NCBI GenBank assembly: GCA_002269645.1
Contig: NIVC01003441.1
Location: 1 to 30,902 of the forward strand
Origin: Macrostomum lignano
Taxonomy: Eukaryota
Length of the DNA: 30,902 nucleotides
Reading direction: 5' to 3'
In this document: positions 3,981-30,902 of the stretch, one piece after another
How the letters are laid out: each line of letters starts with the position of its first letter
How positions within the stretch are numbered: the stretch's first letter is position 1
Made by a program: the position numbers and the translations under genes
Notes under the pieces: model-generated
What the model was told of the DNA's origin: nothing
Seen by the model: only the letters and a program-made list of their open reading frames with translations
The model's database searches: none

Positions 3981-4364
3981 ACCAGCTCTGCCAGTCACTC
4001 CCCTACCAGCTCAGCCAGTCACTCCCCTACCAGCTCAGCCAGTCACTCCCCTACCAGCTCAGCCAGTCACTCCCCTACCAGCTCAGCCAGTCACTCCCCT
4101 ACCAGCTCAGCCCTCAGCCAGTCACTCCCCTACCAGCTCAGCCAGTCACTCCCTACCAGCTCAGCCAATCACTCCCCTACCAGCTCAGCCAATCACTCCC
4201 CTACCAGCTCAGCCAGTCACTCCCTACCAGCTCAGCCAGTCACTCCCCTACCAGCTCAGCCAGTCACTCCCCTACCAGCTCAGCCAGTCACTCCCCTACC
4301 AGCTCAGCCAGTCACTCCCCTACCAGCTCAACCAGTCACTCCCCTACCAGCTCATCCAGTCACT
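3981..4364. repeat. 24-bp minisatellite (CCAGCTCAGCCAGTCACTCCCCTA), ~16 copies
   Basis: Tandem periodicity; ends a few bp from the ARRDC splice donor at 4371. Confidence 0.95.
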
Positions 4365-4371
4365 CGATTAC

Positions 4372-5167
4372 CCTCCAAGTGGCCGATGCGGTATTCGTCG
4401 GTCCTGTCGGTGACCAGCAGGGTCTCCCGGTGCTGCTGCTGCCCCCCAGCTTGGTACAGACACTCCATCATCAGCCCGACGCACAGCCGGCTGATGGCCT
4501 TCCGCGACCGGTTGTTCACGGTGGCGTCAATCTTGATGTACTCGCTTGGAGCGTACACCCGCCGCGGCAGCGACAGGGAGGCCTTCACGCACCTGCTGCC
4601 GCCAACCGCCATTCGGGCGTCAACAATACAGGGCTGCATCAACTCGGAGTGATCTTCTAGCTCCAGAAGGCTCTCGACGCTGAACGCCTCAACGGCGCTC
4701 CAAGGACCGTCTGTGTCGCCATCGGCCTGCATGACGGCCTTGGCTGAGTAGGCCACGCTGCCGCAGCTGCCGGTGAAAGTCGATGGCAGGTGGTGCGGCA
4801 GGCGGCTGGAGAAGGGGAACTCGTGCTCTCCGGCCTGCAGCGTCACGACCTCGCCAGGCCCCGTGGCCACCAGCTCGGCTATGTCGTTGATGTACACCTC
4901 ATCGTCTTGAACGAAATGGCCGCCGCCGAGGCCCCAGCCGACATGGCCGCAGCCGCGCACCACCAGGTCGAGATTGCGCACCTTCAGCGGACGCAGCAGC
5001 CGCAGGCGGACTCGGCCGGTGAGCTGCTGGCCGGGCCGGAAGACGAGTACAGCTGCGGCAGCGGCTGCCGGCTCAGTTGAGTCCAAGTGCAGCGAGAACT
5101 CGCTGACGGCCGAGTCGCCGTGAAAATAATCGTTGCCCGGCTGTCTGGAAGAGTGGCCATTGAGCAT
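4372..5167 (-). CDS. Alpha-arrestin / arrestin-domain-containing protein (ARRDC-like), main coding exon
   Basis: Arrestin-N motifs VFRPGQQLTGRV, VRGCGHVGW, GEHEFPFSSRLPHHLPSTFTGSCGSVAYSAKA. Arrestin-C start VKASLSLPRRVYAPSEYIKIDATVNNRS. Donor G|GTAATC at 4371. Orthologue not assignable. Confidence 0.9.
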
Positions 5168-8196: not shown

Positions 8197-8218
8197 CTGT
8201 ACAGCTGAATAAAAAAGT

Positions 8219-9044
8219 TGTGATGATGGGGCTCGGTCCTTTCGTGCCCCTTTCCCAGACCCGGGTTCGTGTACTGACCCTGGCTGCGGTCCTCCACTGA
8301 CACGCGTACGACGCGGTGTCCGTCGGGACTAGGCTGCTCGAGCGTACGACGCACGACAGCCTACAGACTCGCGTACGACGCAGAGCTGCTTGGGGTGGGA
8401 CCGGCGTACGACGCACTTAATCCCTCTAAGGTGCCTAGTACAGATGCAGACCCAAATGACGTACGAATTGGAAGGCTTACCAGCCGCGATTTCAGTCGTA
8501 CAAGAACCAGCGCCGTCAGAGCAGTGGTGATCTCGATATTCTTTATTTATATATTTGTCTAGCAATTCTGCGAGGAATAGCAATTCAGCAACCAACGCTG
8601 GCACAATCGCCGAGGAGCCACGAAGACGACGAGAATGGGGTCTCAAGGGGCCGAATAAATAGGCAGCAAACTGGGGGTTGAGGGCGCGGGATAAAGGCAG
8701 AAAAGGGGGCTTAGACATCAGCCAAGGCAACGCATGAGCTGTACCAGCCAATCGCCGGGGCGCAGCACGGCAGACTGGGACTGGCAGCCAATCACAAACA
8801 GGGGCGGGGCAGCAAAGCTAACAAAATAATGGGGCGGGGTCGCACAGGGGGGGGGGTCGCACGCAGAGCATGGGGGGGTTGACTCAACAGAAAAGGTCTA
8901 GGCAGGGAGGGGAGGGGTACGCACGCGCAGAAGTGCAGGTGAGTGAGTCAGAAAATATCTAAGGAGGGGGGAGGGGAGAGGACGGCCCACTGGCCCGGTG
9001 CAGCAACTAAGCAAAGAGCACACTGTCATAACACATTCATGACA
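8219..9044 (-). repeat. 3' LTR (826 bp)
   Basis: Direct repeat of 15847-16675; minus-strand termini TGTCATGA...TCATCACA. Confidence 0.98.
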
Positions 9045-9056
9045 CTCCCTCCCCCT
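9045..9056 (-). promoter_or_regulatory. Polypurine tract (AGGGGGAGGGAG)
   Basis: Pure purine run directly abutting the 3' LTR. Confidence 0.92.
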
Positions 9057-9459: not shown

Positions 9460-10446
9460 TCAGTCAGAGCACGAATCCCACAGCCTACGGAGGGCACCCA
9501 GGACCAAACCCTGGCGTCGCAGGTCAAACAGCGGGAACATCACCATCACCGACATGTAGACAGCTTGACACGCTTGGCGACTCCACCGACGAACTCCGTG
9601 CCCCGGATACTTGCGACCGTCTCGCTCCAAGTAGCCCAGGATCTGCAGCATCAACTCCGGACCGAATTCCTTGAAATCCACCGAGGCAGTGGCGCACTTC
9701 CCCTTCAGGGCTAGCAGCACCTCAAAGATGCCCCACGGGTCGCCCTTCCGCATTGCCTGGTGCAGTTTCTTCCGACTGGGTCCTACGTTCTCCAGTTCCG
9801 CGACGGTCACTGGTCGGCACGGTCTTGTCTGAAGCCGGTACGCTCTCTGCAGATATTCTTCAATCAGGTTTCTACATCCGGCACAATCTTCCTCCGCTTC
9901 CCATGACGTCTCAAGCTCCTCTACACCGGCCCACTGCAGCAGATACTCCGCTCCTCGCTCCGTGACTCGTACTCCTAAGACCTTCTCGACCTCGTACTCC
10001 TCCGGCAGTGTCTCACTCGCCTCGTTCATCTCTTCGTCCTGCTCATCGTCTGAGGCCTCCTCACTTGCCTCCATCTTGACGTGCTCCTCATCCCTCCTCG
10101 CCTGTTCTCTCTCGTACGCCTCCTCAGCTAATCGGTTGCTCTCTTGTAGTCTTTCTATCTCTTCTCGGAGATCGTCGGGCATGTCTTCATCCTCTAACAT
10201 CCCTTCTGCGAGCCGAAGCATCTCATCCCGGTCACGAACAGCATTTCCAAAGATATCGTACAGCTTTCTAAGGAACGGACACGACAGTATTCGGTACGCC
10301 TCTTCGCACTCCTGGAATCTCTTTCGCGTCTCCTCTGTTGCGCTCTTGTCAGGGTGCAGTTCGCGTGCTCGACCGTAGAACGCTTTCCGAATCTGTGCCG
10401 CAGACGCCCACAGCTGCACTCCAAGACACTCGTAGAGGTCCGCCAT
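9460..10446 (-). CDS. Retrotransposon ORF3: DnaJ J-domain + acidic linker + chromodomain + unassigned C-terminal domain (328 aa)
   Basis: aa 3-67 DLYECLGV...ASAAQIRKAF...LHPDK...RFQECEEAYRILSCPFLRKLYDIFG is a J-domain with intact HPD (nt 10356-10348). aa 149-198 EEYEVEKVLGVR...EYLLQWAGV...SWEAEEDC..CRNLIEEY is a chromodomain (nt ~9996-9853). The ORF is uninterrupted and lies between the pol stop and the PPT. Confidence 0.92.
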   Translation of the reverse strand: MADLYECLGVQLWASAAQIRKAFYGRARELHPDKSATEETRKRFQECEEAYRILSCPFLRKLYDIFGNAVRDRDEMLRLAEGMLEDEDMPDDLREEIERLQESNRLAEEAYEREQARRDEEHVKMEASEEASDDEQDEEMNEASETLPEEYEVEKVLGVRVTERGAEYLLQWAGVEELETSWEAEEDCAGCRNLIEEYLQRAYRLQTRPCRPVTVAELENVGPSRKKLHQAMRKGDPWGIFEVLLALKGKCATASVDFKEFGPELMLQILGYLERDGRKYPGHGVRRWSRQACQAVYMSVMVMFPLFDLRRQGLVLGALRRLWDSCSD

Positions 10447-10545
10447 CTGTAACAGTCCGGCCTAACTCCGATGAGCAATGAGACACGCACGACATGTACC
10501 TCCCTTCCCCTTTGGCTATCCAAGCGCCGTACACCGGACCCTTCT

Positions 10546-13500
10546 TCAGTAGTAGTACACCGGGACCCCAAACCGATCTGGCGGTCGCCGCAGACGTCTT
10601 GGTCGCCCTGCTTCCTCCTGTGCCGTCCTCACTTCCTGCTCGGGTACGTTGGCGTCGTTCGGCTCTGCCTCATCCTCTTCGTCCTGCTCCTCGTCGTACC
10701 GCGACTCATCGTCGTGCTCTTCTTCGTCATCGTCTGCTTCTCGACGCTCAGGTCCGGGCTCACAGTCTTCGGCCAGATTTCGGGTGTCCGGTGGAGCGTG
10801 ATCTCTTGGATCTTGAAACCGCAGCTGAAGATCTTCAAACTCTTCATCTTCCTGCTCGGATTCCTGGTCCTGCGGCCCTCGCGCTGCGGTCCACCTCTGG
10901 GTCTCGCCCCGTTGCACTCTCTGCCTTCGGCTTCGTCCAGCAGCGGAATTATCACGTCGCGGCCTGGTTTTTCCCGAACTGGCCCTCCCAATTTCCTCTC
11001 TAGTCTCTTGACCGTCTGCCGCCTCCGTCTGGCCCTGAACCGGCCGGAGATTGTTGAAGTGCACCACCTTGGTCTTCTGCGGCTGTGTCGGATCCTGCAC
11101 TCGGTACAACGCATCTGACAGCTTCTCCAGGACCTTCACTGGGCCGCGCCAGTTGATATGGAACTTGCTTTTCTCTCCCATCTCAAGCACGGATAGTACA
11201 GCAAGACAGAGTCGCCCTTCTGAATCGCTTTGCCCTTTACTTTCCGATCGTAATTCATTTTCTGCCGTCGCTGAACCGTCTCGCGTCCTTCTCGAATGCG
11301 TTCATGGGCATGAAGCAGGTTCTGCTGATCTCTTGCACAAACAAGGGATAGCTGTCCGTCTTTCGCCTAAGGTCCTCTGGTTCGAATCCCAGCGGCATCT
11401 CCTGACCATGCAGCATGTAGTAGGGCGTGTAACCGGTGGACGCCTGGACCGTCGATCGATAAGCCATCAAGGCACTTGGCAGGTACTCCTCCCAGGCGTT
11501 CTGACCCTTCTGTACCAGATACGTGCGCAAACTGTTCTTCAGGAACCCGTTAAATCGTTCCACCTGTCCGTTGCCACTCGGGTGGTAGGCGCTCGTCCTG
11601 GTCTTCTTCACACCCAACAGCTCGCACAGCTTCCTGACGATCCCCGACTCAAAGTTCCTTCCTTGGTCTGAGTGAAGTACCCGGGGGCACCCGTGATTGG
11701 CAATCCAGCGTTCGAATAGCACCCTTGCGATCGTTGCCGACTTCTGGTTCCGGATGGCATAAGCGTCAGGCCACTTTGAGAACGCATCTTGCACCGTGAG
11801 GATGTAGAAGTTTCCTTTCTTGCTCCGTGGCAGCGGCCCGATGACGTCCGTCATCACGATATCGAATGGGCTTGAACTCGGAATCGGCTCCATCGGTGCA
11901 ATTGGTTTCTTGCCAGCTTTGGCCTTGGTGCAGTCCAAACAGGCTTTTACGTGCTCTTCGACCTCGCGGCCAAGTCCCGGCCACCAAAACGATTGCCGCA
12001 CCTTCTCCTTGGTCTTGAAAATCCCAACGTGCCCTCCACTCCGTCCACCATGAGCTTCTTCCAGCACTGCTCTCAGCATATTCCGTGGCAACACCACTTG
12101 CGGCTGACGTCTACTGGCCGTATGACACAGCAACACCTCACTGTCCGACACCTCAAGGTCACGACGTCTTTCGATAATCCTCCTTGCCGTCGGTGATATG
12201 CGCCGCAAATGCTCTTCGGTTATCTCTCCGTCGCTGTGAGCCAGCAGCTCCATCGCCTGACGAATGTCGCTGTCCATCTTCTGGCTCTCTCTGATCTCCT
12301 CCGAGGTCCACTTCTGCAATCCCAACGCGTTCACGCCGATCTGCTCTTGTGCACATCCAGGACAACTCTCGCTTCCTTGATGGCGCCGACGTGGCTTCCT
12401 GGAGAGAGCGTCCGCGTGTTGATGTTTCACTCCCGGACGATGTTCGATGCGATACCTGTACGGAGCCAAGAGTTCCAGCCATCTGGCCAGTTGTCCTTCT
12501 ACGTCCCGCAGCGAATGCAGCCACTTCAAGCTGCTGTGATCGGTGCGCACTAGAAACTCTCGCCCCATCAGGTAATAACGAAACTTCTGTACGAAAAACA
12601 CCACGGCCAGCAACTCGACTCGTGTCGTGCAGTAATTCCGTTCTTCTCGCGACAACGTCCTGCTTCCGTAAGCTATTACCTTCTCACTCCCATCTTTCTG
12701 CACCTGCGAAAGCACAGCGCCAATTCTTCTTTTGTGCTACCGTCTGTGTCTAAAACGAATTCTCCAGCGTCCTCCGCAAAGTTTGGAAACGCCATGACCT
12801 CAGATCCCTGCAACCTTTCCTTCAGGGCCTCGAATGCGGCTTGACACTCCTCATCCCAGCTCCACGGGCAATCATGTCGGGTCCGTCGCAGCATCGGCTC
12901 AGCAATGCGGGAAAAATCTGCGATGAATTGCCGGTAATACCCGCACAGTCCCAGGAATGACCTTACTTCCTTCACATTCCTCGGAGTTGGCCAGTCACGA
13001 ATTTCGGCAATCTTTTCTGGACTCGTGGCGATCCCATCAGCTGACACTACGTGTCCCAGGAAGGTCACTGACTTCAGCAGGAATGCGCACTTCTTTGGCT
13101 TCAGTTTGATGTTCGCTGCTCGCAACCGTCGAAAAACCGTTTGCAACCGTTCCAGGTGCTCTTCTACCGTTCGTGACCACACTAGCAGGTCGTCCAGATA
13201 CACCAAACACGTCTTCCAGCACAACTTCCCCAACACCACATTCATTAGCCGGCTGAATGAAGTCGGTGCATTTGTCAATCCAAATGGCATAACGTTCCAG
13301 GCGTACTGCTGTACCCGGTGTGAAACGCCAAAGGCCGTCTTCAGTCTGTCGCTGGGTTCCACCGCCATCTGCCAGTATCCCGACTGCATGTCCATGGTCG
13401 AAAAAATCTTGGCACCGCCTAGGCTCTCCAACAGGTCATCTGTCCTGGGCAACGGCACTGCATCCTTCTTGGTCACTTCATTCAGTTTCCGGTAGTCACA

Positions 13501-14738
13501 ACAGAACCTCAGGGAACCGTCCTTCTTTTTCACGCACACCACCGGAGAGCACCATGGGGACTGAACCTCGCTGATTCTCCCAGCTTCCAGCAAGTCATCC
13601 AACTCCTTGTCCACTTCCTGCCGCAGGTACGGGGAATCCGCCTCGCCGCTTCTTTCACAGGCCTGGCATCTCCAGTGTCGATCTCGTGCTTCATCACCGT
13701 CGTACAGCCGAGATCCTTGGAGTCCTTAGCAAAGACAGCCCGATGTTGGGAAATCAGCTCCCTGAAGTCGGCTTCCTCCTCCTCCGACAGGCCACATGAA
13801 CCCCACTCGCGGAATTCTTCGATCGGGTCCCATGCCTCCGCTTCATTCTTGGCCTCTACGTCGTCGTCCAAGCGCACCACGTTGATACCTCCGTTCGGTT
13901 CCAAAGGAATAAACCAGCCAATCGTCTCTCCTTTCTTGACCCTCTTCCTACAACTGGACGTATTCAGCAATCTCATCGGCAGCCGTCCATCCACACCGGG
14001 CGCTACCAGAGCTCGAGCCATCGCCAAATCCTTCTCAGCGGCCTTCACCGGCTTTTCTTCCGTTATGCCGACCGATCCGCAGTTTCTTGCGCCCTTTTTC
14101 TCTACCCTGGCTGGCATGACCACTTCTTGCGCCGGTTCCAGAAATACCGTTGTCTCGGCTTTGATTCGACACACCACGGGCAGCTCGCCTTTCTGCCGTA
14201 TCGGAACTCTAACATCGCCCACTCGAAAGACAAACTCCGAATAGTTGATGACGCAACGATGCTGTTTGAAAAATTCGGACCCGAGAATGACATCATAACG
14301 CAATCCGTCCACTACGAAGAAATTCGCTGACCACCGCTCGCCGCCAATCTCCACGTCCAGCACAATGCAGCCTCTCATCCTCATCGCACCTCCATTGGCC
14401 GTTGAAAGGGAACCGTCCATTGCAGTCAGTCTCTCCCTCACCTCTTGCGGCAGCCTCAGGAAAACATCACAGCTCAGCACTGACACACTCGCACCACTGT
14501 CTAACAGCAGAGCCACTGGCTTGCCGGAAACCGCACCGGAAATAAAAACTGTCAGAGGCTCCGTTGATACCGACGAACACGCCTCATGAACCAGGTTGCT
14601 CTTTGAATTCCCATCACCAGAGACGCACTTGGATTTATTTACAGAGTTAGTGAGCAACACCGGTTCCTCGCCCCTGGGAGACTTCACTTCCTGGCAGGGT
14701 CCCGACTCTCCCCGGTCGGTCCCCTCGGCCCGTTTCCC
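10546..14738 (-). CDS. pol: pol polyprotein (aspartic protease, RT, RNase H, integrase), with four apparent single-base frameshifts
   Basis: Protease LLDSGASVS (14501-14493); RT MPFGL and YLDD (13200-13189); RNase H LDTDGS..GIGAVLSQ...ELLAVV...TDH; integrase H..H..C..C zinc finger, DVIGP / SDQG / VERFN core, GPY/F-like WRGPVKV; ends RPRRLRRPPDRFG. One base is missing at each of ~13632, ~12726, ~11318 and ~11191. Confidence 0.95.
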
Positions 14739-15738
14739 GACTTCGGACACTTGAAGGATAGGTGGCCTTCACCGTTGCACTTGTGACATCGTACTGGCGA
14801 TTTCCCGTTTCCACTTGTCTGGCTGGTTTTCTTGGGACACTTTGATGAGATATGGCCCCACTCTCGACACGAAAAACACTGCACAGCCTTCCGACTCACC
14901 GGGGTCGGCTCTTCCGCTTCTCCAGACCTCCGCTCCTCCATCTCTTTCATTCGCATCTCCATGGCCGCAAGCTGTTTTCGAAGCATCTCGACCTCACTGC
15001 TTTCGGAAGCCTCATTTCTAGTCTCAGCTGTGACAGCACAGACGGTAGCTCTTTTTGATCCCTGACCTAGTGGACCGTGACTTGCCCTAACCGCCGCTTC
15101 CAGCTGATGCACTAGACGCATCGCGTCTGCTAAGGTCTCCGGCTGGCTCATGTACAATCGCTCCCGCACAGCCACCCCCGCACGGACGCCTCGCATAAAT
15201 CGCTCTTTCGCAAGATCATCGCGCACATCGGCAGGCGCATCAGGAAAGGCGTTTGCGACCAACTCAATCACAGCTTCAGAGAAATCTTCTACCGACTCCT
15301 TCTCGCTCTGCTCTCTATTGCTCAGTTCTGTGCGGTAGTCGACGACGGTACGGTGCATAGTGAACCTATCCCTCAAGGCCTGGGTAAATTCTTCGAACTG
15401 CAAGTCGTCCCAAGGTTCATGTTGTCGACAACTTGGAATGTGCTGAAGTCTAGATTGCTGAGCAACTGAGCGCGCCGATTCTGCATCGGAATCTGCATGG
15501 CATCGCAATAAGCTACGAAGAGCCTCAACCACTTCACGAAATTCATTCCTGGAGCATACTTCACCGGCCTCTGAATCCTGAGGGCACCCGCTTGCTGCAT
15601 GTTCTGCTGAATCTGGGCAGTCAAGGCGGCGACCAGATCATTAACACCAAAGGCTCCAGCAGCACCTCCAGCAGCACCTCCAGCCGCACCCCCAGCCGCA
15701 CCTCCAGCAGCACCTCCAGCAGCACCTCCAGCATCCAT
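14684..15738 (-). CDS. gag: gag (capsid + nucleocapsid with two CCHC zinc knuckles), one apparent frameshift
   Basis: ATG at 15738. One G missing at ~15410 joins VVDNMNLG to DDLQFEEFTQALRDRF. Knuckles CFSCREWGHISSKC and CHKCNGEGHLSFKC. Confidence 0.93.
14697..14738 (-). promoter_or_regulatory. Putative programmed -1 ribosomal frameshift site (G GGA AAC + 7-nt spacer + hairpin)
   Basis: Heptamer at 14738-14732 in the gag frame; pol is in the -1 frame; stem GGG-GA-CCGAC / GTCGG-GA-CCC at 14724-14697. Confidence 0.8.
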
Positions 15739-15825: not shown

Positions 15826-15843
15826 GTCCCACCAAGGATGCCA
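15826..15843 (-). promoter_or_regulatory. Primer binding site TGGCATCCTTGGTGGGAC
   Basis: 18 nt starting with TGG, 3 nt inside the 5' LTR. Complement GUCCCACCAAGGAUGCCA looks like a tRNA 3' end; closest from recall is tRNA-Arg, not verified. Confidence 0.88.
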
Positions 15844-15846
15844 ATT

Positions 15847-16675
15847 TGTGATGATGGGGCTCGGTCCTTTCGTGCCCCTTTCCCAGACCCGGGTTCGTGT
15901 ACTGACCCTGGCTGCGGTCCTCCACTGACACGCGTACGACGCGGTGTCCGTCGGACTAGGCTGCTCGAGCGTACGACGCACGACAGCCTACAGACTCGCG
16001 TACGACGCAGAGCTGCTTGGGGTGGGACCGGCGTACGACGCACTTAATCCCTCTAAGGTGCCTAGTACAGATGCAGACCCAAATGACGTACGAATTGGAA
16101 GGCTTACCAGCCGCGATTTCAGTCGTACAAGAACCAGCGCCGTCAGAGCAGTGGTGATCTCGATATTCTTTATTTATATATTTGTCTAGCAATTCTGCGA
16201 GGAATAGCAATTCAGCAACCAACGCTGGCACAATCGCCGAGGAGCCACGAAGACGACGAGAATGGGGTCTCAAGGGGGCCGAATAAATAGGCAGCAAACT
16301 GGGGGTTGAGGGCGCGGGATAAAGGCAGAAAAGGGGGCTTAGACATCAGCCAAGGCAACGCATGAGCTGTACCAGCCAATCGCCGGGGCGCAGCACGGCA
16401 GACTGGGACTGGCAGCCAATCACAAACAGGGGCGGGGCAGCAAAGCTAACAAAATAATGGGGCGGGGTCGCACAGGGGGGGGGTCGCACGCAGAGCATGG
16501 GGGGAGGGTTGACTCAACAGAAAAGGTCTAGGCAGGGAGGGGAGGGGTACGCACGCGCAGAAGTGCAGGTGAGTGAGTCAGAAAATATCTAAGGAGGGGG
16601 GAGGGGGAGAGGACGGCCCACTGGCCCGGTGCAGCAACTAAGCAAAGAGCACACTGTCATAACACATTCATGACA
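15847..16675 (-). repeat. 5' LTR (829 bp)
   Basis: Differs from the 3' LTR only at five G-run sites. Minus-strand TATA-like TATTTAT at 16289-16283 and AATAAA at 16174-16169; CCAAT and GGGGCGGGG boxes in the presumed U3. Confidence 0.98.
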
Positions 16676-16786
16676 AAGTTTCTAAGAAAAAAGATTTCAA
16701 AAACTAATTTTTCTTTGTGCTTCAACGCACAAGGAATGATTTAGCAACAGACTATAGGGAAAATCGGCGGCATTATTTATGGTTTT

Positions 16787-22452: not shown

Positions 22453-22801
22453 TCAGACTGAATTTCAGCCAATTTGTACCTTGGCACACACAAACCCCGC
22501 CCTAACCTACCAGTGCAGCGTGCTTGCGTAGAGGGTGCTGCTTCCCGTCAATTGTCCAACCATTGTTCAACAAAGCTACCTCGTACTAAACAGGTGCATC
22601 ATTTTATGCACTTTGCACAGCACAGATGCCATGATTCCACACTTACTTCAAGCTAATGCAAAGATAACGAAGGAAAAGTGAATAATAAATGTGGGAAAGT
22701 GCTGTGGCTATAAACCAAGCCGAGGATCACCCATAAACAAAATAATTTGCTTCCCAGTGCACCGTACGTTTTAGCGAGCTACTTGAAAAGAGAGCAAGCG
22801 A

Positions 22802-22958
22802 TGCATGCATGGATGAAGGAAAACACTGGATTGCTCATCTGAAATAGTCTATGGTCGAGTTATTTCCTCCACACTTGAAATTTACCCCCCAGGAATCTGT
22901 TGGCTGATGAAAGTTAAAAATAATCCCCCGTAGGACTTGACTGGCTGCTGAATCAGTC
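22802..22958 (+). repeat. ~160-bp repeat, inverted copy at 26906-27071
   Basis: Aligns to the reverse complement of 26906-27071 with scattered substitutions and small indels. Confidence 0.92.
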
Positions 22959-23335
22959 AGGGGGGAATTCGAAGATCGGGGTGTGAGTTTGACTTTGAGT
23001 GTTTTCATAGAATATTGTAGCAGTATGTATCAAAGCAGACGAGCTGCAGAGAGAAGGGTGCATATAAGAAGGTTTCCTTTTCAATGAGAGCTGTGTGTCA
23101 TTAATTTATTCTATTCTGCCTTTGTCGTTTTGTTCCGTCAGCGTTCACTGGTAATGGCAAAGCGCAACTGCGCTGCCTTGGACTGCAAATCCAAGACCGG
23201 ACGACAAAAATGAGGACGGCAGCCCGATAAGTTTTTTTGCTTTTCCTGTTAAATTCATCGATCAGCTCCCTGAATGGCTGGTGAGTATAAAAACATCGCC
23301 AAAGTTCAAGCCAACCAGAAACACATTTCTTTGCG

Positions 23336-24031
23336 GCCTGGTGGTCAACACGCAGAAGACCGTTGTGCTCTGCGTGCCGGACGACATCGAGGCTGCAATA
23401 TTCTGCCGAGGCGCTGACGGGCAGACGACCGAACTCCCACGATGTCAGCAGTTCGTCTACCTCGGCGGTCTGGTTCCAGACGCTCGCGAGGACCTGCGAC
23501 GCCGCCGCGGGCTTGCCTGGGCTACCTTTCGTTCTGTGAGGGCAGTCCTGCAGTCCGAGGCCCTACCGGACCGCCAGAGGGCGGCGCTGTTCCAGGCGGT
23601 AATCGAGACCGTCCTGCTGTACAACGCCGAGATCTGGACGCTGACGGACTCACTCGAACAGCAAGTCGATGCGGCGCACGCTGGCCTGCTGCGCGCCGCC
23701 TTCAACATCGGCGTCGAGCGAGTCAACAACGTGGCACTCTATCGCCGCGCTGGCCTGCCACGTCCAGGCGATCTACTGCGCAGTCGGCGACTCCAGCTCG
23801 CAGGCAATCTCATCCGCGCCGAGTCGTACTGCCCACAGCTGGTGCAGGAGGTGCTGCTGCTCACGGTCAAGCGCGAACTCGGCGTTATGTCGACTGTCTG
23901 CTGGCTGAGGCCGGCGCCCGGACACTGCCGGTGGCGTGGCCTTTGTTCGCGCCCAAGCCATGAAGCGCGCCCTGTGACGCTGACTTTTGCCATCTTGACA
24001 GCGTATTTTGTTGTTGTTGTTATTGTTGTTG
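23336..24031 (+). mobile_element. 5'-truncated RTE-clade non-LTR retrotransposon (RT thumb and C-terminus)
   Basis: GLVVNTQKT, FVYLG, LFQAVIETVLLYNAEIWTLT, RRLQLAG; (TTG)n tail at 24008-24034; TTGCG duplicated at 23331-23335 and 24032-24036. Confidence 0.88.
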
Positions 24032-24209
24032 TTGCGACAAGCACTTCGCCGCCGACTCCTTCACCACAGTTCCACAGAGAAAACTGGCTTGCGATTATAG
24101 AAGGTTATTAAAGCCAAGTGCTGTGCCAACCAGTCAGTTGCGCGCACTTGGTGCTCTGCCTTTTAATGCCTCTCTTGAAATGATCGTCTCTGCCTCATCA
24201 AGTATCTAT

Positions 24210-24646
24210 GCACCGAGTGTCTCTGTTGTACCGAGGGTCTCTGTTGCACCGAGTGTCTCTGTTGCACCGAGTGTCTCTGTTGCACCGAGTGTCTCTGTTG
24301 CACCGACTGTCTCTGCTACACCGACTGTCTCTGCTGCACCGACTGTCTCTGCTGCACCGACTGTCTCTGCTGCACCGACTGTCTCTGCTGCACCGACTGT
24401 CTCTGCTGCACCGACTGTCTCTGCTGCACCGACTGTCTCTGCTGCACCGACTGTCTCTGCTGCACCGACTGTCTCTGCTGCACCGACTGTCTCTGCTGCA
24501 CCGACTGTCTCTGCTACACCGACTGTCTCTGCTGCACCGACTGTCTCTGCTACACCGACTGTCTCTGCTACACCGACTGTCTCTGCTGCACCGACTGTCT
24601 CTGCTACACCGACTGTCTCTGCTGCACCGACTGTCTCTGCTACACC
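24210..24646. repeat. 18-bp minisatellite (CACCGACTGTCTCTGCTG), ~24 copies
   Basis: Tandem periodicity; reads (PTVSAA)n in the THAP frame. Confidence 0.95.
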
Positions 24647-24814
24647 AGGGACAATAAAACTACCGGGACGCAAAACAAGCCAAATCATGGTGAAAAAAGT
24701 TAAGGGGTCGTCGTTTGAAAGCAGTGTTCTGTGGCCGTTCCAACTACAATTCTTCAGTCTAAAGAGGTGTGAGGCCAAATAAAAAGCCCTCAACTCATGT
24801 GCGACAGCAAAAAA

Positions 24815-25540
24815 ATGTTGAGAAAGTGCAACGTCTTTAACTACAGATCAAACTATAACTCAGAAGAAAGCCGAACAACGATATTTGCTCTTCCTTGAGA
24901 TGCACGAGAACGGGAGCGTTGGAGACAAAGCCTACCAAATACTTTTGAGGTAAGAAGGATGTTAATTCTAAGCGATTATACGCTGGTATGCGTGGATGAA
25001 TTTATTACAAACTAATTGTAAAAAATAATCACAGCGATAAAATTTACCATTCTAGAAAGTGACTGAGCACATGGACATGTGCCAAAGACACTGGCCAAGT
25101 GACACCCCATGTTAAAGAATGGTCGACATGAAAGACCGAAAGATCCGCCTTCTGTCTTCTCTGGCTTTCCCCCTTCGTTCTTGATACAGACGGACAGACA
25201 CAGTTTTTATTGCACTAAACTTCTCCGTTCGCGCATTCATTATGCATACGCCAGTTTTGATTCGAGCCTTGCAACAATTGGCAAACTGAATCCAATGGAA
25301 CTTTAACTATTCAACCGCCAGGTGCAGACAGTTAATTTATCGGCCGAATGGATGGACGTGATTCGACTGTACAAATCAGAAGAATATCACGTTGTCAAAC
25401 GAATGGAATCAACCCACGAAGCTTGCTATCCTTCAGTTCAAGCATACAGAAAAACGAAGGTAACACTCGCTCTCCAAGTCTTCAATGAAAAGGTTGTTGC
25501 AGCACTGAAGTGCGACGGCTCCATAGACACGGCAGTATAA
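24815..25540 (+). pseudogene. Decayed THAP-containing P-superfamily transposase (second THAP, intron, transposase fragment)
   Basis: MLRKCNVFNYRSNY...IFALP*D..ERERWRQSLP, a GT-AG intron at 24950-25055, then MCQRHWP...RPKDPPSVF. 25322-25540 reads AEWMDVIRLYKSE...KVTLALQVFNEKVVAAL, like the P-element/THAP9 KVxLAxQVFS segment. Stops and large deletions are present. Confidence 0.68.
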
Positions 25541-26905
25541 GTCGTCGGCTTACGAAGGTTGCACCTGCGCCGACTACATCGCACGACAGAAAGCTACGCA
25601 AACTGGGAGGCCAATGAATTTGCGGTACAGTTTTTAGTATTCTGTCTTTGGAGTTTCAATTTTCCAATCCGAAATCTTTCATATCTAGCTGCTCCTCATC
25701 TGGGTTCCTCTTGAAATTCGTTCTGTTTAGTCCTGATTTTACATCAGGACTAACTTAAACTTAAACAAACTTAAGTTGTTTTTACAGTACTCGTAAGGAG
25801 ATTTTATAGGGCTAGACTAGGATACTATAAGTCATAATGCTGCGGACGACATCCAGTCTCGCCAAATGTTGTTGCTCGCGTATTATCGTTAGCCCGTATA
25901 TAAAGTTTCCGGTTTACATGTATACACTGTTCAAATCTTGTCACTTTAGCTTCGTTGACCCTTTGGCCCATGTTCTTCTGCTATTTCTTCCATTGTAAGA
26001 CTATTCCTCTTATAAGACATTTTCAAAATGAGGGCTAGTTAGTAAAGCTTGGAAGTTTTCCTGCCAACTCCATACTGGTTTCCGACCGCGGTAAGTCCGG
26101 ACCGCGGGACTTAGAAACATTTCGAAAAGCGTCTCTCAGAAATTTTCTAAGGTAAATTCCAGTTCTAAGGTGCCAAGCCACGACTGAATTCCCTACTATG
26201 ACTAAGGCTTCCCAGCATAACAATAAAAGTTTGCCAGGTGACGGATATTGGGGAAATCTATGCTGGCACATAAATCATATGTAAAAGCACCAAGCTTACA
26301 TTGATTACCCATCGTTAATTTATAATTAGGCGCCAGGCCAATACAATGCTGCACTAACTTTTTAATCTGTGTGCGCGTGCTGGTGTGCTGTTTAACTACT
26401 CAATAATTACGTCGCATTAATATCGCAGTACATTTTGTCTCTGTGTTACCTGTTAACTCTATATTTACATCTTAATAGTAGGAACATTGGACTGGAGGCA
26501 GGGACCATAATTATTAATTCATAATTTAGGAATTTTATGCACCTAGAGCTAGCTATATTATTAATCGGCATCTTAATAATTATGTACTGCTCCGATAACG
26601 AACAGTGGTCGTTTAAAGTCGGTAACATTCGTTATCACTTCAACCTTAGTGTTAAGGAGGAAGATCCTTGCCCCAAGAGGATTATCCCAGACAGCAAAGG
26701 AGACGTAATTTCAACCCTCGCTACTAAATCAAAAACAAAACCGGTTAAGGCTCAGACCGGTCGCCCATTCCAGTCTCTTTGTGATTAATGATCAGGGCCG
26801 GTGAGACGTCCGCAAGCAACGGCGTGATGCTTTATTTAGACTTTTCTACCTACAAGCATGTCTAGCTGCTGAAAATTTGAGGGAAATCCAAAGATGTATT
26901 TGATA

Positions 26906-27071
26906 GACTGATTCAGCATCCAATCAAGTCCTACGGGGGATTATTTTTAACTTTCATCAGCCAATAGATTCCTAGGGGGGGGGGTAAATTTCAAGTTTGG
27001 AGGAAAGAACTCGACCATAGACTATTTCAGATGAGCAATCCAGTGTATTTTTTCATCCATGGATGCATGCA
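26906..27071 (-). repeat. Inverted copy of the 22802-22958 repeat
   Basis: See the partner copy. Confidence 0.92.
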
Positions 27072-27740
27072 AAAATAAATAAAATAAACAAGAGTCGAAG
27101 ATCGGCTGGTTTTAATTTATTACCCAGTTAGGCCTGGTCATAGACTAAGGAAAGCATTTATTTGATGCGAAATAAACTTATTTGGCCGGGTCAATAAATT
27201 TATTGGCCTAATAAAGTACGTTGCATTTGCGACCAATGGCCAAGAATGAGCTTCCTCTAATCTCTAATCTCTGGCCAATCAGAGCAATTTTCTCATGAGC
27301 GCCGACACTGCAAAACAGCTTCTGCCCATATCCTGGACTAGAAGTCCAGACTTTCAGTTTTTGAGGTTTTAGAAGGTTACAGTCATTCAAAAATACATTT
27401 ATCTGGTAGACTTAAAAACCCCCAGTTGCCAAACCATCAGAATTCAAACGTCCAACCGCTGCTGCTCTTATCCAAGCCAGCGGTGATTGAGCAGTAGGCC
27501 TGTTGTTCTGTATGTGTCAAAGATTCTCACGAAGGCAGTGTTGTAGTTGAGACTGCGAGCGTAATATGTTTACGGTCCCACTCAGCCATCTAATAACGCC
27601 CTAAAGTATTTTCCTTTCTCTTCGTTATGGAAAATAAAATGCAAGTTTGGCTAAGCAGCAGTCGGCTACAAGCCCGAACTCAACTATTATAAAATATTTC
27701 TTACGAGTCACAACGGACAGAGCGGAATTCGCTCAAATTT

Positions 27741-27947
27741 ACAACAACAACAACAACAACAAAATACACTGTCAGGATGGCAAAAGTCAGCGTCACAGGG
27801 CGCGCTTCATGCTTGGGCGCGAACAAAGGCCACGCCACCGGCAGTGTCCGGGGCGCCGGCGTCAGCCACCAGACAGTCGACGTAACGCCGAGTTCACGCT
27901 TGACCTCGCCGGTAGGGTGCTTGCAGCGTGAGCAGCAGTACCTCCTG
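27741..27947 (-). mobile_element. Second RTE copy, 3' end only
   Basis: Reverse complement closely matches 23845-24031. Reads QEVLLLTLQAPYRRGQARTRRYVDCL...AQA*, (TTG)n tail; keeps 22 nt that copy 1 has lost. Confidence 0.9.
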
Positions 27948-30902
27948 CCGATGAAGACGCCAGAGGCGTCGCCCTCGAGATGTGGGCCGCCTCCAACAAC
28001 CTCCAGCTGGCCAACAGACTGGGCACCGCCACCCGCCTGAATCCTAGCACCGGCGGGAAATCTGCTCCTGACTCCACGTAGTGCCGGGGTGCCGTCGACA
28101 GAACGACGCGCGAGAGCTGGACTACCATCGAAGATTTGGGCTCCGATCACCTGCCTATCACTTTCGCCATCCAGACCGGAAAGCGTCCGAAGAGACCAAC
28201 GGGCCCCCCGATGGGCCTTCAAAAAAGCGGACTGGACCAGGTTTCGCGCTGAACTCTCTCGCTGAACTCTCTCGCGTTCAGCGCTCTCTCTCTCGCGCTG
28301 AACGCGCTGAGCTTCAACAGCCCCGTCCATAAAACCGACCAGGCCAACAACAACCTCTGCAAGGACATTCTGCGCTCCGCGTCTCACGCTATTCCGCGGG
28401 GTTGCCGCCACGGCGCCTCTAAGTCCTTCTGGAACAGCGACTGCGACGCCGCCCAGAGGGCCTGCCAATCCGCCCGCAGCAGTGTCGAACTCGACGCCAC
28501 GGAACAGAACGTCGTCGCCCTCCAACAGGCCCGGGCCCACCTTCGCAGTACCATCGCCCTGGCAAAGCGTCTGCATTGGGAGGACACCTGCTCCAACCTA
28601 GACGTCAACTCCGACATCTTCCGACTAGTGCGCAACACCCGCGGTGATGCCCCGTTGGCCCGCTCCGATGCGTCCATCAGCCACACCCCGGCCTCCGGCC
28701 GAGCTCTTTGTCAGCTGTTACGCCTCTGAGTCCAAGCTCGAGCCCGGCCCACACGACCGCAACACGCGCGGCGAAGCCAACGCATTCCTCAGAGCTTGCC
28801 GCTCCGCTGAAGGACGTCTCGACATCGAAAAGGACTCAGCCACACCCCGGCCTCTCGGCATCTCCGGTCGCTCCTCCTCGACTTCAAAAGGGCGTACAAC
28901 CGCGTCTGGATCAGAGCCTTGTGCATCAAAATGAGGGACCTGGGGGTTCCCCCACGTTTCGTGCTCTGGATCCACCGCTTCCTGAGCGACCGCCGCGCCG
29001 AGGTCAAATGGGCCAACAGAACTAGCCGCGAACGGGTTTTCGAGGACGGCCTCCCGCAGGGCAGTGTCCTGGCCCCCCTCCTCTGGCTCATCTTCGCTAA
29101 CGACCTCCCGGCTGCCATCAGGGCCGTTAGCCCAGAATGCGGCATCAATCTGTATGCAGACGACAGCAGCCTCCTCGCCACCAACCGCCGCCTAACCGAG
29201 TGCGCTCGCAGCATCCAACCAGCCCTCGATGCCACAGCGGCCTGGTGCGCCCTCTGGAAAGTCCTCCTCAGTTACGACAAATGCGAGTATTCGACCTTCA
29301 CCCTTTGCCCGTCCGAAACGAACGGCAAGGTCCGCCTCCGGCTCGACATCAACGGCCACGATATCGCCTAAAACCAATACCCCGCCTGCGTCACCCTTGA
29401 CGGCCAGCTCAACTTCGCCAAGCAGGGCTCGGAGGTCCGCCGGAGGATGGCTCGACGCCGTAGCGCCCTCAACGCCCTTGCCCATCGCAGCACGGGCGCC
29501 GACGCCAGAGTCCTGCGCACTGCCTACATTGCCACCATCCGGGCCTGTGCCGACTACGGCAGTGCTATTTGGGTTAACGGGGCTGCGCCGAGCACCCGTC
29601 GCGGTATTGAGAGTCAGCAGGCAATCTGTGTGCGGCTGATCACTGGTTGCTGCAGCACGACGCGAATCTCCCCCCGATAGCTTCTGTCGCCGTGGAACGC
29701 GCCGCCAACCTCTTCGAGCGCATCGCCAGGCTCCCCCTGAATGCCCGCTCACGGCATTGCTATGCGCACGACCCGTGCCCGCCTCAAAAACCGGAGTTTC
29801 GAAGAGGCCCCTGCGCCCGACGACACCCGCCTCGAGCTCGACCGAGCAAGGCCCTTCCGAGGCTGCTGGCGCCGCGCCGCTTCGGAGCTCCCGGTCTGCG
29901 CCTCCACGCTAAGAGAATCTGACCGCGAGACCCCGCCTCGCCTCGCTCCCTGGCTCGACTTCTGCCAGGCCCGCGTCAGCTTCGACATCCAGGCCTGCAG
30001 TGCCCGCAGGGACGCCCCCGCCGAGGTCCGGGCAGCCGCCGCCTAGGCCGGCATCGCGCGAGCCCGCGAGTGCTCCGTCATCGCCTGGACGGACGGCTCC
30101 ACTGAGGAGGGTACCAGCAACGGGGGCAGCGCCGCCGTCATCGAGTTCAGGGACGGTCGCCCCGCGGTCACCGTCCGCGCCGCGGCCGGTGCCCTGTGCA
30201 GCAGCTTCCAGGCCGAACTCGTCGCGATCCAGACCGCCCTGTCCTACTGCCTCCGCGAGGGCCCGGCCTGACCCCCAGCATGGCGGTTCTAACTGACAGC
30301 CTCAGCGCTCTGACCGCCCTGGAGCAGGGGCCCGCCCGCCAGTCCACCGCTCTACCGGTGCGACCTGCTGGCAGCTCATCGGCGGCTCCTCCGGCCGCAC
30401 AGATTTCCGTTTCTGCTGGGTCCCGGACACGCCGGCATCGACGGCAACACCGCTGTGGACCTTGCGGCCGCCGAAGCCGCCACTCTCGCGCAAGCGCACG
30501 GGCCTATCAGTATCACCTCGGCCCGCGCCGCCATCCGCCACGATCGCCGCGTCCTCGATGCCCGCATTCTCGGCCCTCCTATTCACCATACCCATTCCTT
30601 CCGCAATTGCCGGGAGTTTGTCACTTTCAACCAACTCCGGGCCGGCGTCAGCACCCTGTGCGGTTCCACCAGACACCGCCTCGGTATGCAAGACGACGAG
30701 GCCTGCCCGGACTGTGGCGCCCCGGACACGGTGGACCACGTCCTCCGCCGCTGCCCCCGCGAAGATGCGCCGCGGCTCTGCATCTTCAGCGGGACGACCC
30801 CCTGGACGGCCCCGCGGAAGGTTATTCGCGTTGCTCCGCGGGATGGGGCGATGGCCCCGCCTATATTAGCGCGCAGCGCTAATGGTGCGCTGGAAAAAGA
30901 AA
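27948..30902 (+). mobile_element. 5'-truncated, decayed non-LTR retrotransposon with APE end, RT, RNase H and C-terminal CCHC (I-group-like)
   Basis: SDHLPI (28142); LLDFKRAYNRVW; GLPQGSVLAPLL; YADD (29153-29164); RNase H WTDGS (30086), FQAELVAI, VLTDSLSAL, WVPGHAGIDGN; CPDC..DTVDHVLRRC (30704-30757). A-rich run at the window end; several stops and frameshifts. Confidence 0.9.

Follow-up and report, generated by a model that had tools for sequence, protein, structure and literature searches.

In the errantivirus Drosophila gypsy, env forms a third open reading frame (ORF3) that follows pol and begins at a splice acceptor. J-domains are known in DNA viruses, and the polyomavirus T antigens join an N-terminal J-domain with the HPD motif to docking motifs and a unique domain, a case of a mobile element recruiting Hsp70. 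Extra ORF3s have already been reported in animal and plant long terminal repeat (LTR) retrotransposons (PMC5408684, PMC6317226). We describe an ORF3 that encodes a DnaJ J-domain, a chromodomain and a C-terminal domain in a Ty3/Gypsy LTR retrotransposon of the flatworm Macrostomum lignano. The element lies on the minus strand of contig NIVC01003441.1 (assembly GCA_002269645.1), of which positions 1 to 30,902 were analysed (30,902 nucleotides, called the window below). The sequence data are best explained if this ORF3 is an accessory gene, conserved in a clade of flatworm Gypsy elements, that encodes a modular Hsp70 co-chaperone.

The ORF3s of bdelloid rotifer LTR elements (GDSL esterase, DEDDy exonuclease; PMC5408684) are likewise captured, family-specific, non-envelope genes in the env position, and they too include a nuclease-like domain. 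They are enzymes with intact active sites, whereas the present ORF3 appears to be a co-chaperone adaptor with exchangeable modules, of which the TatD-like one is probably inactive. Chromoviruses (PMC6317226) resemble the window element in being LTR retrotransposons with an HP1/Swi6-like chromodomain whose cage residues can erode. Here, in contrast, the chromodomain belongs to a separate gene, is joined to a J-domain, occurs in 2 of 12 lineages and is missing from the integrase. With the polyomavirus T antigens we found no link in sequence or fold beyond the J-domain; ORF3 has no helicase, and its carrier is a retroelement, not a DNA virus.

No published description of a J-domain ORF in an LTR element was found in our literature searches, whose scope excluded Repbase, GyDB and the 2020 M. 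lignano LTR classification, and the same literature yielded neither a chaperone-recruiting accessory gene of a retrotransposon nor a trans-spliced third ORF. DnaJ, chromodomain and TatD are not mentioned in the main text of the recent M. lignano LTR paper PMC12801592.

The third gene of the window element

The element is full-length, with the LTRs, primer-binding site, polypurine tract, target duplication and order of protease, reverse transcriptase (RT), RNase H and integrase found in Ty3/Gypsy elements. Its LTR pair, aligned over 835 columns, shows one mismatch and seven gap positions, and the element is young. Its features are as follows.

15847..16675, minus strand: 5' LTR (TG...CA), with no canonical heat-shock element
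15827..15843, minus strand: primer-binding site, matching by complementarity the 3' end of host tRNA-Arg(TCT)
14684..15738, minus strand: gag with two CCHC zinc knuckles, frameshifted in the window copy
10546..14768, minus strand: pol (protease, RT, RNase H, integrase with an acidic tail and no chromodomain), frameshifted in the window copy
10447..10452, minus strand: TTACAG directly before the ORF3 ATG, fitting the splice-acceptor motif [T/C]TNCAG
9460..10446, minus strand: ORF3, 328 aa, stand-alone accessory gene
10255..10440, minus strand: J-domain with HPD (aa 3-64), ahead of a conserved helical extension
9844..9996, minus strand: HP1/Swi6-like chromodomain (aa 151-201), cage Y151/W172/V175
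9466..9783, minus strand: basic C-terminal domain (aa 222-327), predicted as five helices, in which a Gly/Arg loop and a Trp are conserved
9045..9056, minus strand: polypurine tract
8219..9044, minus strand: 3' LTR
8215-8218 and 16676-16679: 4-bp target duplication AAGT

ORF3 starts 99 nt past the pol stop and ends about 400 nt short of the polypurine tract. The preliminary description of this stretch had reported it, from the letters alone, as an intact 328-aa frame between these two landmarks, and our analysis confirmed this. Two Pfam families matched above cut-off, DnaJ at aa 3-64 (E 4.4e-16) and Chromo at aa 151-201 (E 1.4e-12), the latter close to the aa 149-198 first proposed. The HPD motif (H31-P32-D33) and the cage residues Y151, W172 and V175 are as had been read. 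The J-domain fold aligned with the ERdj5 J-domain with Z 11.9 and an rmsd of 1.6 over 72 residues, and by this fold and its HPD the ORF3 protein is a probable class C J-domain protein. The supposed acidic helical linker of about 80 aa is refined by the predicted structure of aa 1-130 (pLDDT above 90) to a folded extension of the J-domain and one long helix. The C-terminal domain is also present, over about aa 222-327 instead of some 130 aa. A chromoshadow domain is absent from ORF3 in the Pfam scan and present in the host protein L110. Among named sequences, M. lignano has a protein with 99% identity that goes under the labels hypothetical and 'J domain-containing'; a search of the ESM Atlas gave no usable match.

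The integrase was found to be free of a chromodomain, as had been claimed; Pfam detected none in its tail, and a purpose-built chromodomain profile scored merely 5-6 bits there. ORF3 has no transmembrane helix (best 19-aa hydropathy 1.23) and, unlike an errantivirus env, no hydrophobic stretch of the length that a signal peptide or membrane anchor requires; its domains are of J, chromo and helical type, not those of a membrane fusion glycoprotein. The window element thus has neither the chromovirus-type fusion of a chromodomain to the integrase C-terminus nor an env. The frameshifts in gag and pol may be assembly errors, since contigs of four public sequencing runs differ from the window by single bases at these sites and the frames that are open in other copies reach 1408 aa. 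The integrases of the window element (10546-10700) and of lineages B, C, D and E, which are introduced below, end in a long acidic tail whose terminal motif, basic-Pro-x-Arg-aromatic-Gly, is conserved.

ORF3 lineages, shared core and add-on modules

Searching the genome with ORF3 gave 138 matches. Among the best 29 loci of the window's own family (family A), 17 have an intact ORF of 326-328 aa (14 distinct sequences), and in 28 of the 29 ORF3 lies directly behind the integrase end. The distinct changes among them were 26 synonymous and 9 non-synonymous, a ratio near 0.10. Family-A copies are 94-100% identical, and their loci are not independent insertions because the M. lignano assembly is described as redundant (PMC12801592). 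Another 11 ORF3 lineages of this genome (G, B, B2, C, C2, D, I, E, H, H2 and K) were reached through weaker matches; their RTs are 52-60% identical to the window RT, or about 90% in lineage G; lineage I is known as ORF3 remnants without pol. Full-length ORF3 matches numbered about 20 in lineage B and about 15 in lineage C. Between sister lineages, dN/dS was 0.08-0.32 in 10 of 11 comparisons, values that are rough because dS is mostly above 1, and the remaining comparison was saturated. The stand-alone gene of the preliminary description is therefore neither a one-off capture nor broken in most copies, its dN/dS is far below 1, and ORF3 is almost certainly a real gene under selection. With the literature searches described above, none of the three results that the preliminary description had named as refuting was obtained.

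The RT tree was built with Mlig-id38 (= L104) and one other sequence as outgroups and with no chromovirus reference RTs. It left out L052, L066, L090 and L105; the pol at L066 belongs to another element. Monophyly of the whole ORF3 group against the two outgroups had a support of 70/71. The LTR of Mlig-id38, a member of the Gmr1/Osvaldo cluster (PMC12801592), matches locus L104, a near neighbour with 52% RT identity and no ORF3, which suggests but does not prove a placement of the clade near Gmr1/Osvaldo. Mlig-id38 has a heat-shock element and no ORF3, whereas the window element has ORF3 and no canonical heat-shock element was found in its LTR. Heat-shock elements are present in the L104 LTRs and before a host DnaJ gene. 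The identifier of the ORF3 gene had no entry in the table of heat RNA-seq results, in which genes carry other identifiers.

The fixed core of ORF3 consists of the J-domain, the helical extension, the acidic linker and the C-terminal domain. J-domain and C-terminal domain occur together in the 12 lineages and in five full-length J-domain proteins of other assemblies. Of the 11 own-genome J-domains aligned, 10 retain HPD (those of A, G, B, B2, C, D, I, E, H and H2). In the J-domain tree, 16 element J-domains fell on one side of a branch and 24 host J-domains on the other (support 94/97), which fits a single capture. As for a possible donor, the host gene L059, which we take to be DNAJC9-like, was placed beside A, G and E by a quick tree (SH-aLRT 81), and a more careful tree did not reproduce this.

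The C-terminal domain is found in all ORF3 lineages with its Gly/Arg loop and Trp conserved, is predicted as five helices (pLDDT 86.8) and has a net charge of +5 to +16 in 14 of 15 rows. No Pfam family was found in 18 members. With Foldseek, nothing among PDB entries or viral models reached E<=0.001, and a wide fold search returned generic helical bundles at best (Z 7.9), with no clear fold match. PDB sequence searches found designed helical proteins and ankyrin or channel helices alone. A LEDGF/TFIIS-N-like fold seems unlikely, with a profile probability of 0.3% against one host sequence and no place among the top 50 fold rows. A profile search of 1.84 billion proteins returned nine, of which eight are true relatives (two from M. 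lignano, six from other assemblies). P0010 was set aside because it is a repeat protein with no relation to the family. For the genomic context of the relatives in other assemblies, which are known as proteins alone, neither two scans of metagenomes nor one of viral sequences gave a match. The domain is predicted to be a new, well-folded one with no known relative.

The combination of J-domain and chromodomain, which the preliminary description had treated as a unit, is not conserved as such; the J-domain always travels with the C-terminal domain, and the chromodomain is confined to the window lineage and its sister G (2 of 12 lineages). Among 75 loci scanned, it was found in three lineage-G loci alone, besides family A and the protein P0002. 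Its nearest solved relatives are Swi6, CBX5 and CBX1, its nearest host matches include HP1-type genes, and its dN/dS is 0.16. The third cage position is aromatic in lineage G, which has the full three-aromatic cage, Val in family A and Leu in P0002. From these sequences V175 is a derived state, since the sister lineage keeps all three aromatics.

A motif resembling a SUMO-interacting motif (SIM), with a four-residue hydrophobic core next to an acidic and Ser-containing stretch (Ser-Asp-Asp-Glu), lies in the linker of 11 of 14 chromodomain-free rows and fits the published definition (PMC12751080); SUMO binding is putative. It was found in neither of the two family-A-type rows, the window protein included, and one match to the pattern lies inside a chromodomain strand of lineage G. 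Shuffling gave an expectation of 1.7 in 17 rows, and I-S-D-D is invariant in all eight chosen rows. The host SUMO matches (L129-L135) are seven identical copies on four contigs, three of them in inverted pairs.

In branches H and K a TatD-like domain is appended, 37% identical between the two. The Pfam TatD match was above cut-off at L069 (E 1e-8) and L093 (E 1e-6) and below it in K (E 9e-5). In a weak alignment of the K domain (E 0.04) a single Glu survives, and the residues at the His, His, Glu and Asp positions, which we presume to be metal ligands, seem to be replaced; judged by these residues, the domain is probably inactive. Family K, whose J-domain has lost HPD and so departs from the HPD-bearing fold of class C J-domain proteins, has its ORF3 at the following places.

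L102:6160-7872, L103:6181-7893 and L101:2015-3739: family K ORF3 (HPD-less J-domain, helical region, TatD-like domain)

Several observations on individual lineages were made besides. In lineage G (L051:2836-7438 and L052), gag, protease and part of RT are about 90% identical to family A, RNase H and integrase are missing from the two copies examined, and ORF3 is 57% identical to that of family A except for near-identical last 42 codons; the lineage looks recombinant and non-autonomous. Its ORF3 holds an AT-rich insertion, and a reading of this as a GT-AG intron was rejected. L056:2664-5960 is a deletion copy of family E with RNase H fused in frame to ORF3 (annotated as P0004). Downstream of pol, L092-L095 contain young H2-related copies (LTRs over 99% identical) from which the J-domain and helical domain are gone and in which the TatD-like domain is partial, and L088 and L091 appear to be similar deletion forms of C2. 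A family-B-like copy has an AT-rich insertion with short ORFs at L086:2500-4700; one ORF tested had no Pfam match, and our impression is that these ORFs resemble capsid or packaging genes of a DNA-virus-like mobile element. At L080:2226-6572 and L081 we found a protein of 1449 aa in a single frame, in which an N-terminal J-domain is the sole Pfam match; it is present at five genome places with no adjoining Gypsy pol. Primer sites vary across the clade (L035, L038, L062, L075, L039, L074, L083, L093, L098, L103), being of Arg type in A, presumably Lys-like in B, C and D and presumably His-like in H, K and M (a family without ORF3, see below).

Expression and proposed function

M. lignano trans-splices about 30% of its genes, the spacing within its operons has a peak near 100 bp, and [T/C]TNCAG is the top motif at its spliced-leader acceptors (PMC8629364). 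In 9 of 12 lineages this motif is found no more than 22 nt from the start of ORF3, compared with 4.7% of element windows, and AG stands directly before the ATG in six of the nine lineages that have one (background 9.9%). The pyrimidine tract of the family-A acceptor is weak (rank 122 of 203). ORF3 begins 99 (A), 101 (E) or 120 nt (D) behind pol in three lineages and 232 (H), 421 (C) or 423 nt (B) in three others. The spliced leader ends in AUG, which would be in frame with ORF3 of A, G, B, B2, D and I and out of frame with that of C, E, H and K. The acceptor motif in 9 of 12 lineages suggests that ORF3 may be freed by spliced-leader trans-splicing, and a spliced ORF3 RNA is likely. It would be a possible case of a transposon that expresses an extra gene through host trans-splicing. 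The element was present in 18 of 22 sequencing runs (the kind of run being a guess), and none of the listed runs that hold it is on record as RNA. The contigs of four runs cover it evenly, and none of the loose ends listed falls at the ORF3 start.

HP1-type chromodomains are linked to silent chromatin, and SUMO to silencing. With a J-domain and a docking motif, polyomavirus T antigen makes Hsp70 dismantle Rb-E2F. ORF3 may work in a comparable way. It would be translated from an RNA of its own, which either spliced-leader trans-splicing or cis-splicing would release from the transcript of the element, using the acceptor that precedes the ATG. The protein would be nuclear, and its chromodomain or SIM-like motif would lead it to silenced chromatin, methylated or SUMO-coated. 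There the basic domain would grip nucleic acid or a repressor and the J-domain would make host Hsp70 dismantle the repressive complex, so that element copies stay transcribed. ICP0 of HSV-1 (PMC3174244), also a mobile-element protein, counters repression via SUMO-conjugated targets; it is a ubiquitin ligase, whereas ORF3 would use Hsp70 and its SUMO binding is putative.

That ORF3 acts on chromatin is probable. Its role as an anti-silencing adaptor that brings Hsp70 to silenced chromatin is ranked first because two interchangeable linker modules point to silent chromatin and because of the T antigen analogy, and we hold it tentatively, at a little short of an even chance. A wider scenario, in which an old Gypsy clade evolved an operon-like, trans-spliced anti-silencing platform and swapped its address labels (SUMO motif, HP1-derived chromodomain, dead TatD), is possible and rather doubtful. 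To our knowledge, anti-silencing proteins of animal retrotransposons are rarely known. ORF3 is a candidate family of this kind with a natural swap series (chromodomain, SIM-like, TatD-like, HPD-less and none), and this series, in a model flatworm with transgenesis and RNA-seq, makes element resistance to chromatin silencing directly testable.

Several points weigh against the anti-silencing role. Family M (L096, L098 and L099) nests within H plus K (support 100/99), has LTRs 98.7-99.6% identical, and no ORF3 remnant was found in it; such a young nested family without ORF3 means that the gene can be lost and is not essential. Family K has an open frame of 571-575 aa in all three copies fetched, and its 16 RT matches suggest that it is large and young; as HPD is lost, its protein is kept without the canonical Hsp70 trigger. 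The losses in M and K show a gene that helps but is dispensable, and lineages may differ in how it acts. Family A lacks the third cage aromatic and thus the HP1-type three-residue cage. The SIM pattern was defined after the alignment had been viewed, its rows are related to each other, and it is missing from E, K and P0009. With no known relative, the ligand of the C-terminal domain is a guess. The contigs of the four runs are continuous through 10446 and no splice joint was seen in them, although contigs cannot reveal transcript starts, which makes a missing joint weak evidence either way. All the functional steps are ones that we infer, and the parts of ORF3 also fit integration targeting.

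A trans-acting integration factor is the alternative that survives best, and we consider it unlikely. ORF3 would tether the integration complex to chromatin via its chromodomain or SIM-like motif, and Hsp70 would open the target nucleosome or disassemble the complex after strand transfer. The lack of a chromodomain in the integrase, the targeting that chromodomains are thought to give chromoviruses (PMC6317226) and the position of ORF3 directly behind pol in 28 of 29 loci all agree with this. The C-terminal domain, however, appears unlike the host LEDGF-type integrase-binding domain by the profile probability given above, lineage G keeps ORF3 under selection although its two examined copies have no RNase H and integrase, and family M transposed recently without ORF3.

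ORF3 might instead be a cytoplasmic chaperone for element proteins that aids Gag assembly or RT folding, much as Hsp40/Hsp70 aid polyomavirus capsids and hepadnavirus polymerase. A core of J-domain plus a basic domain that could bind element RNA would suit such a role, and J-domain proteins occur in many viruses; but it leaves the purifying selection on the chromodomain, the SIM-like motif and the retention of the HPD-less K protein unexplained, and we regard it as improbable.

Hsp70/Hsp90 are needed for small-RNA loading, and ORF3 might act as a decoy against small-RNA defence, diverting Hsp70 from PIWI/Argonaute loading or competing with HP1/SUMO readers. The TatD-like domain would then shield element nucleic acid, and targeted dismantling would be unnecessary. 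HPD loss in K, cage erosion in A and the apparent replacement of the TatD-like metal-ligand positions are compatible with a decoy. Retention of HPD in 10 of 11 own-genome J-domains and of the C-terminal domain throughout suggests a specific job instead, and we think the decoy quite improbable.

A neutral passenger, that is, captured host fragments that look intact through the youth of their copies, would suit the 94-100% identity within family A and the absence of ORF3 from family M, but it is largely refuted by dN/dS (about 0.1 within the family, 0.08-0.32 between lineages with near-saturated synonymous sites) and by one architecture shared across RTs merely 52-60% identical, and is extremely improbable.

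Other features of the window

Elsewhere in the window, an arrestin-domain gene fragment (Pfam Arrestin_N and Arrestin_C) lies at 4352-5167 on the minus strand. At about 28600-30200 on the plus strand there is a non-LTR retrotransposon in degraded form, RT and an RNase H-like end included. Several inverted repeat arms of 42-90 nt, spaced about 3.7-4.1 kb, occur in 22801-27905, and many minisatellites are found throughout the window.
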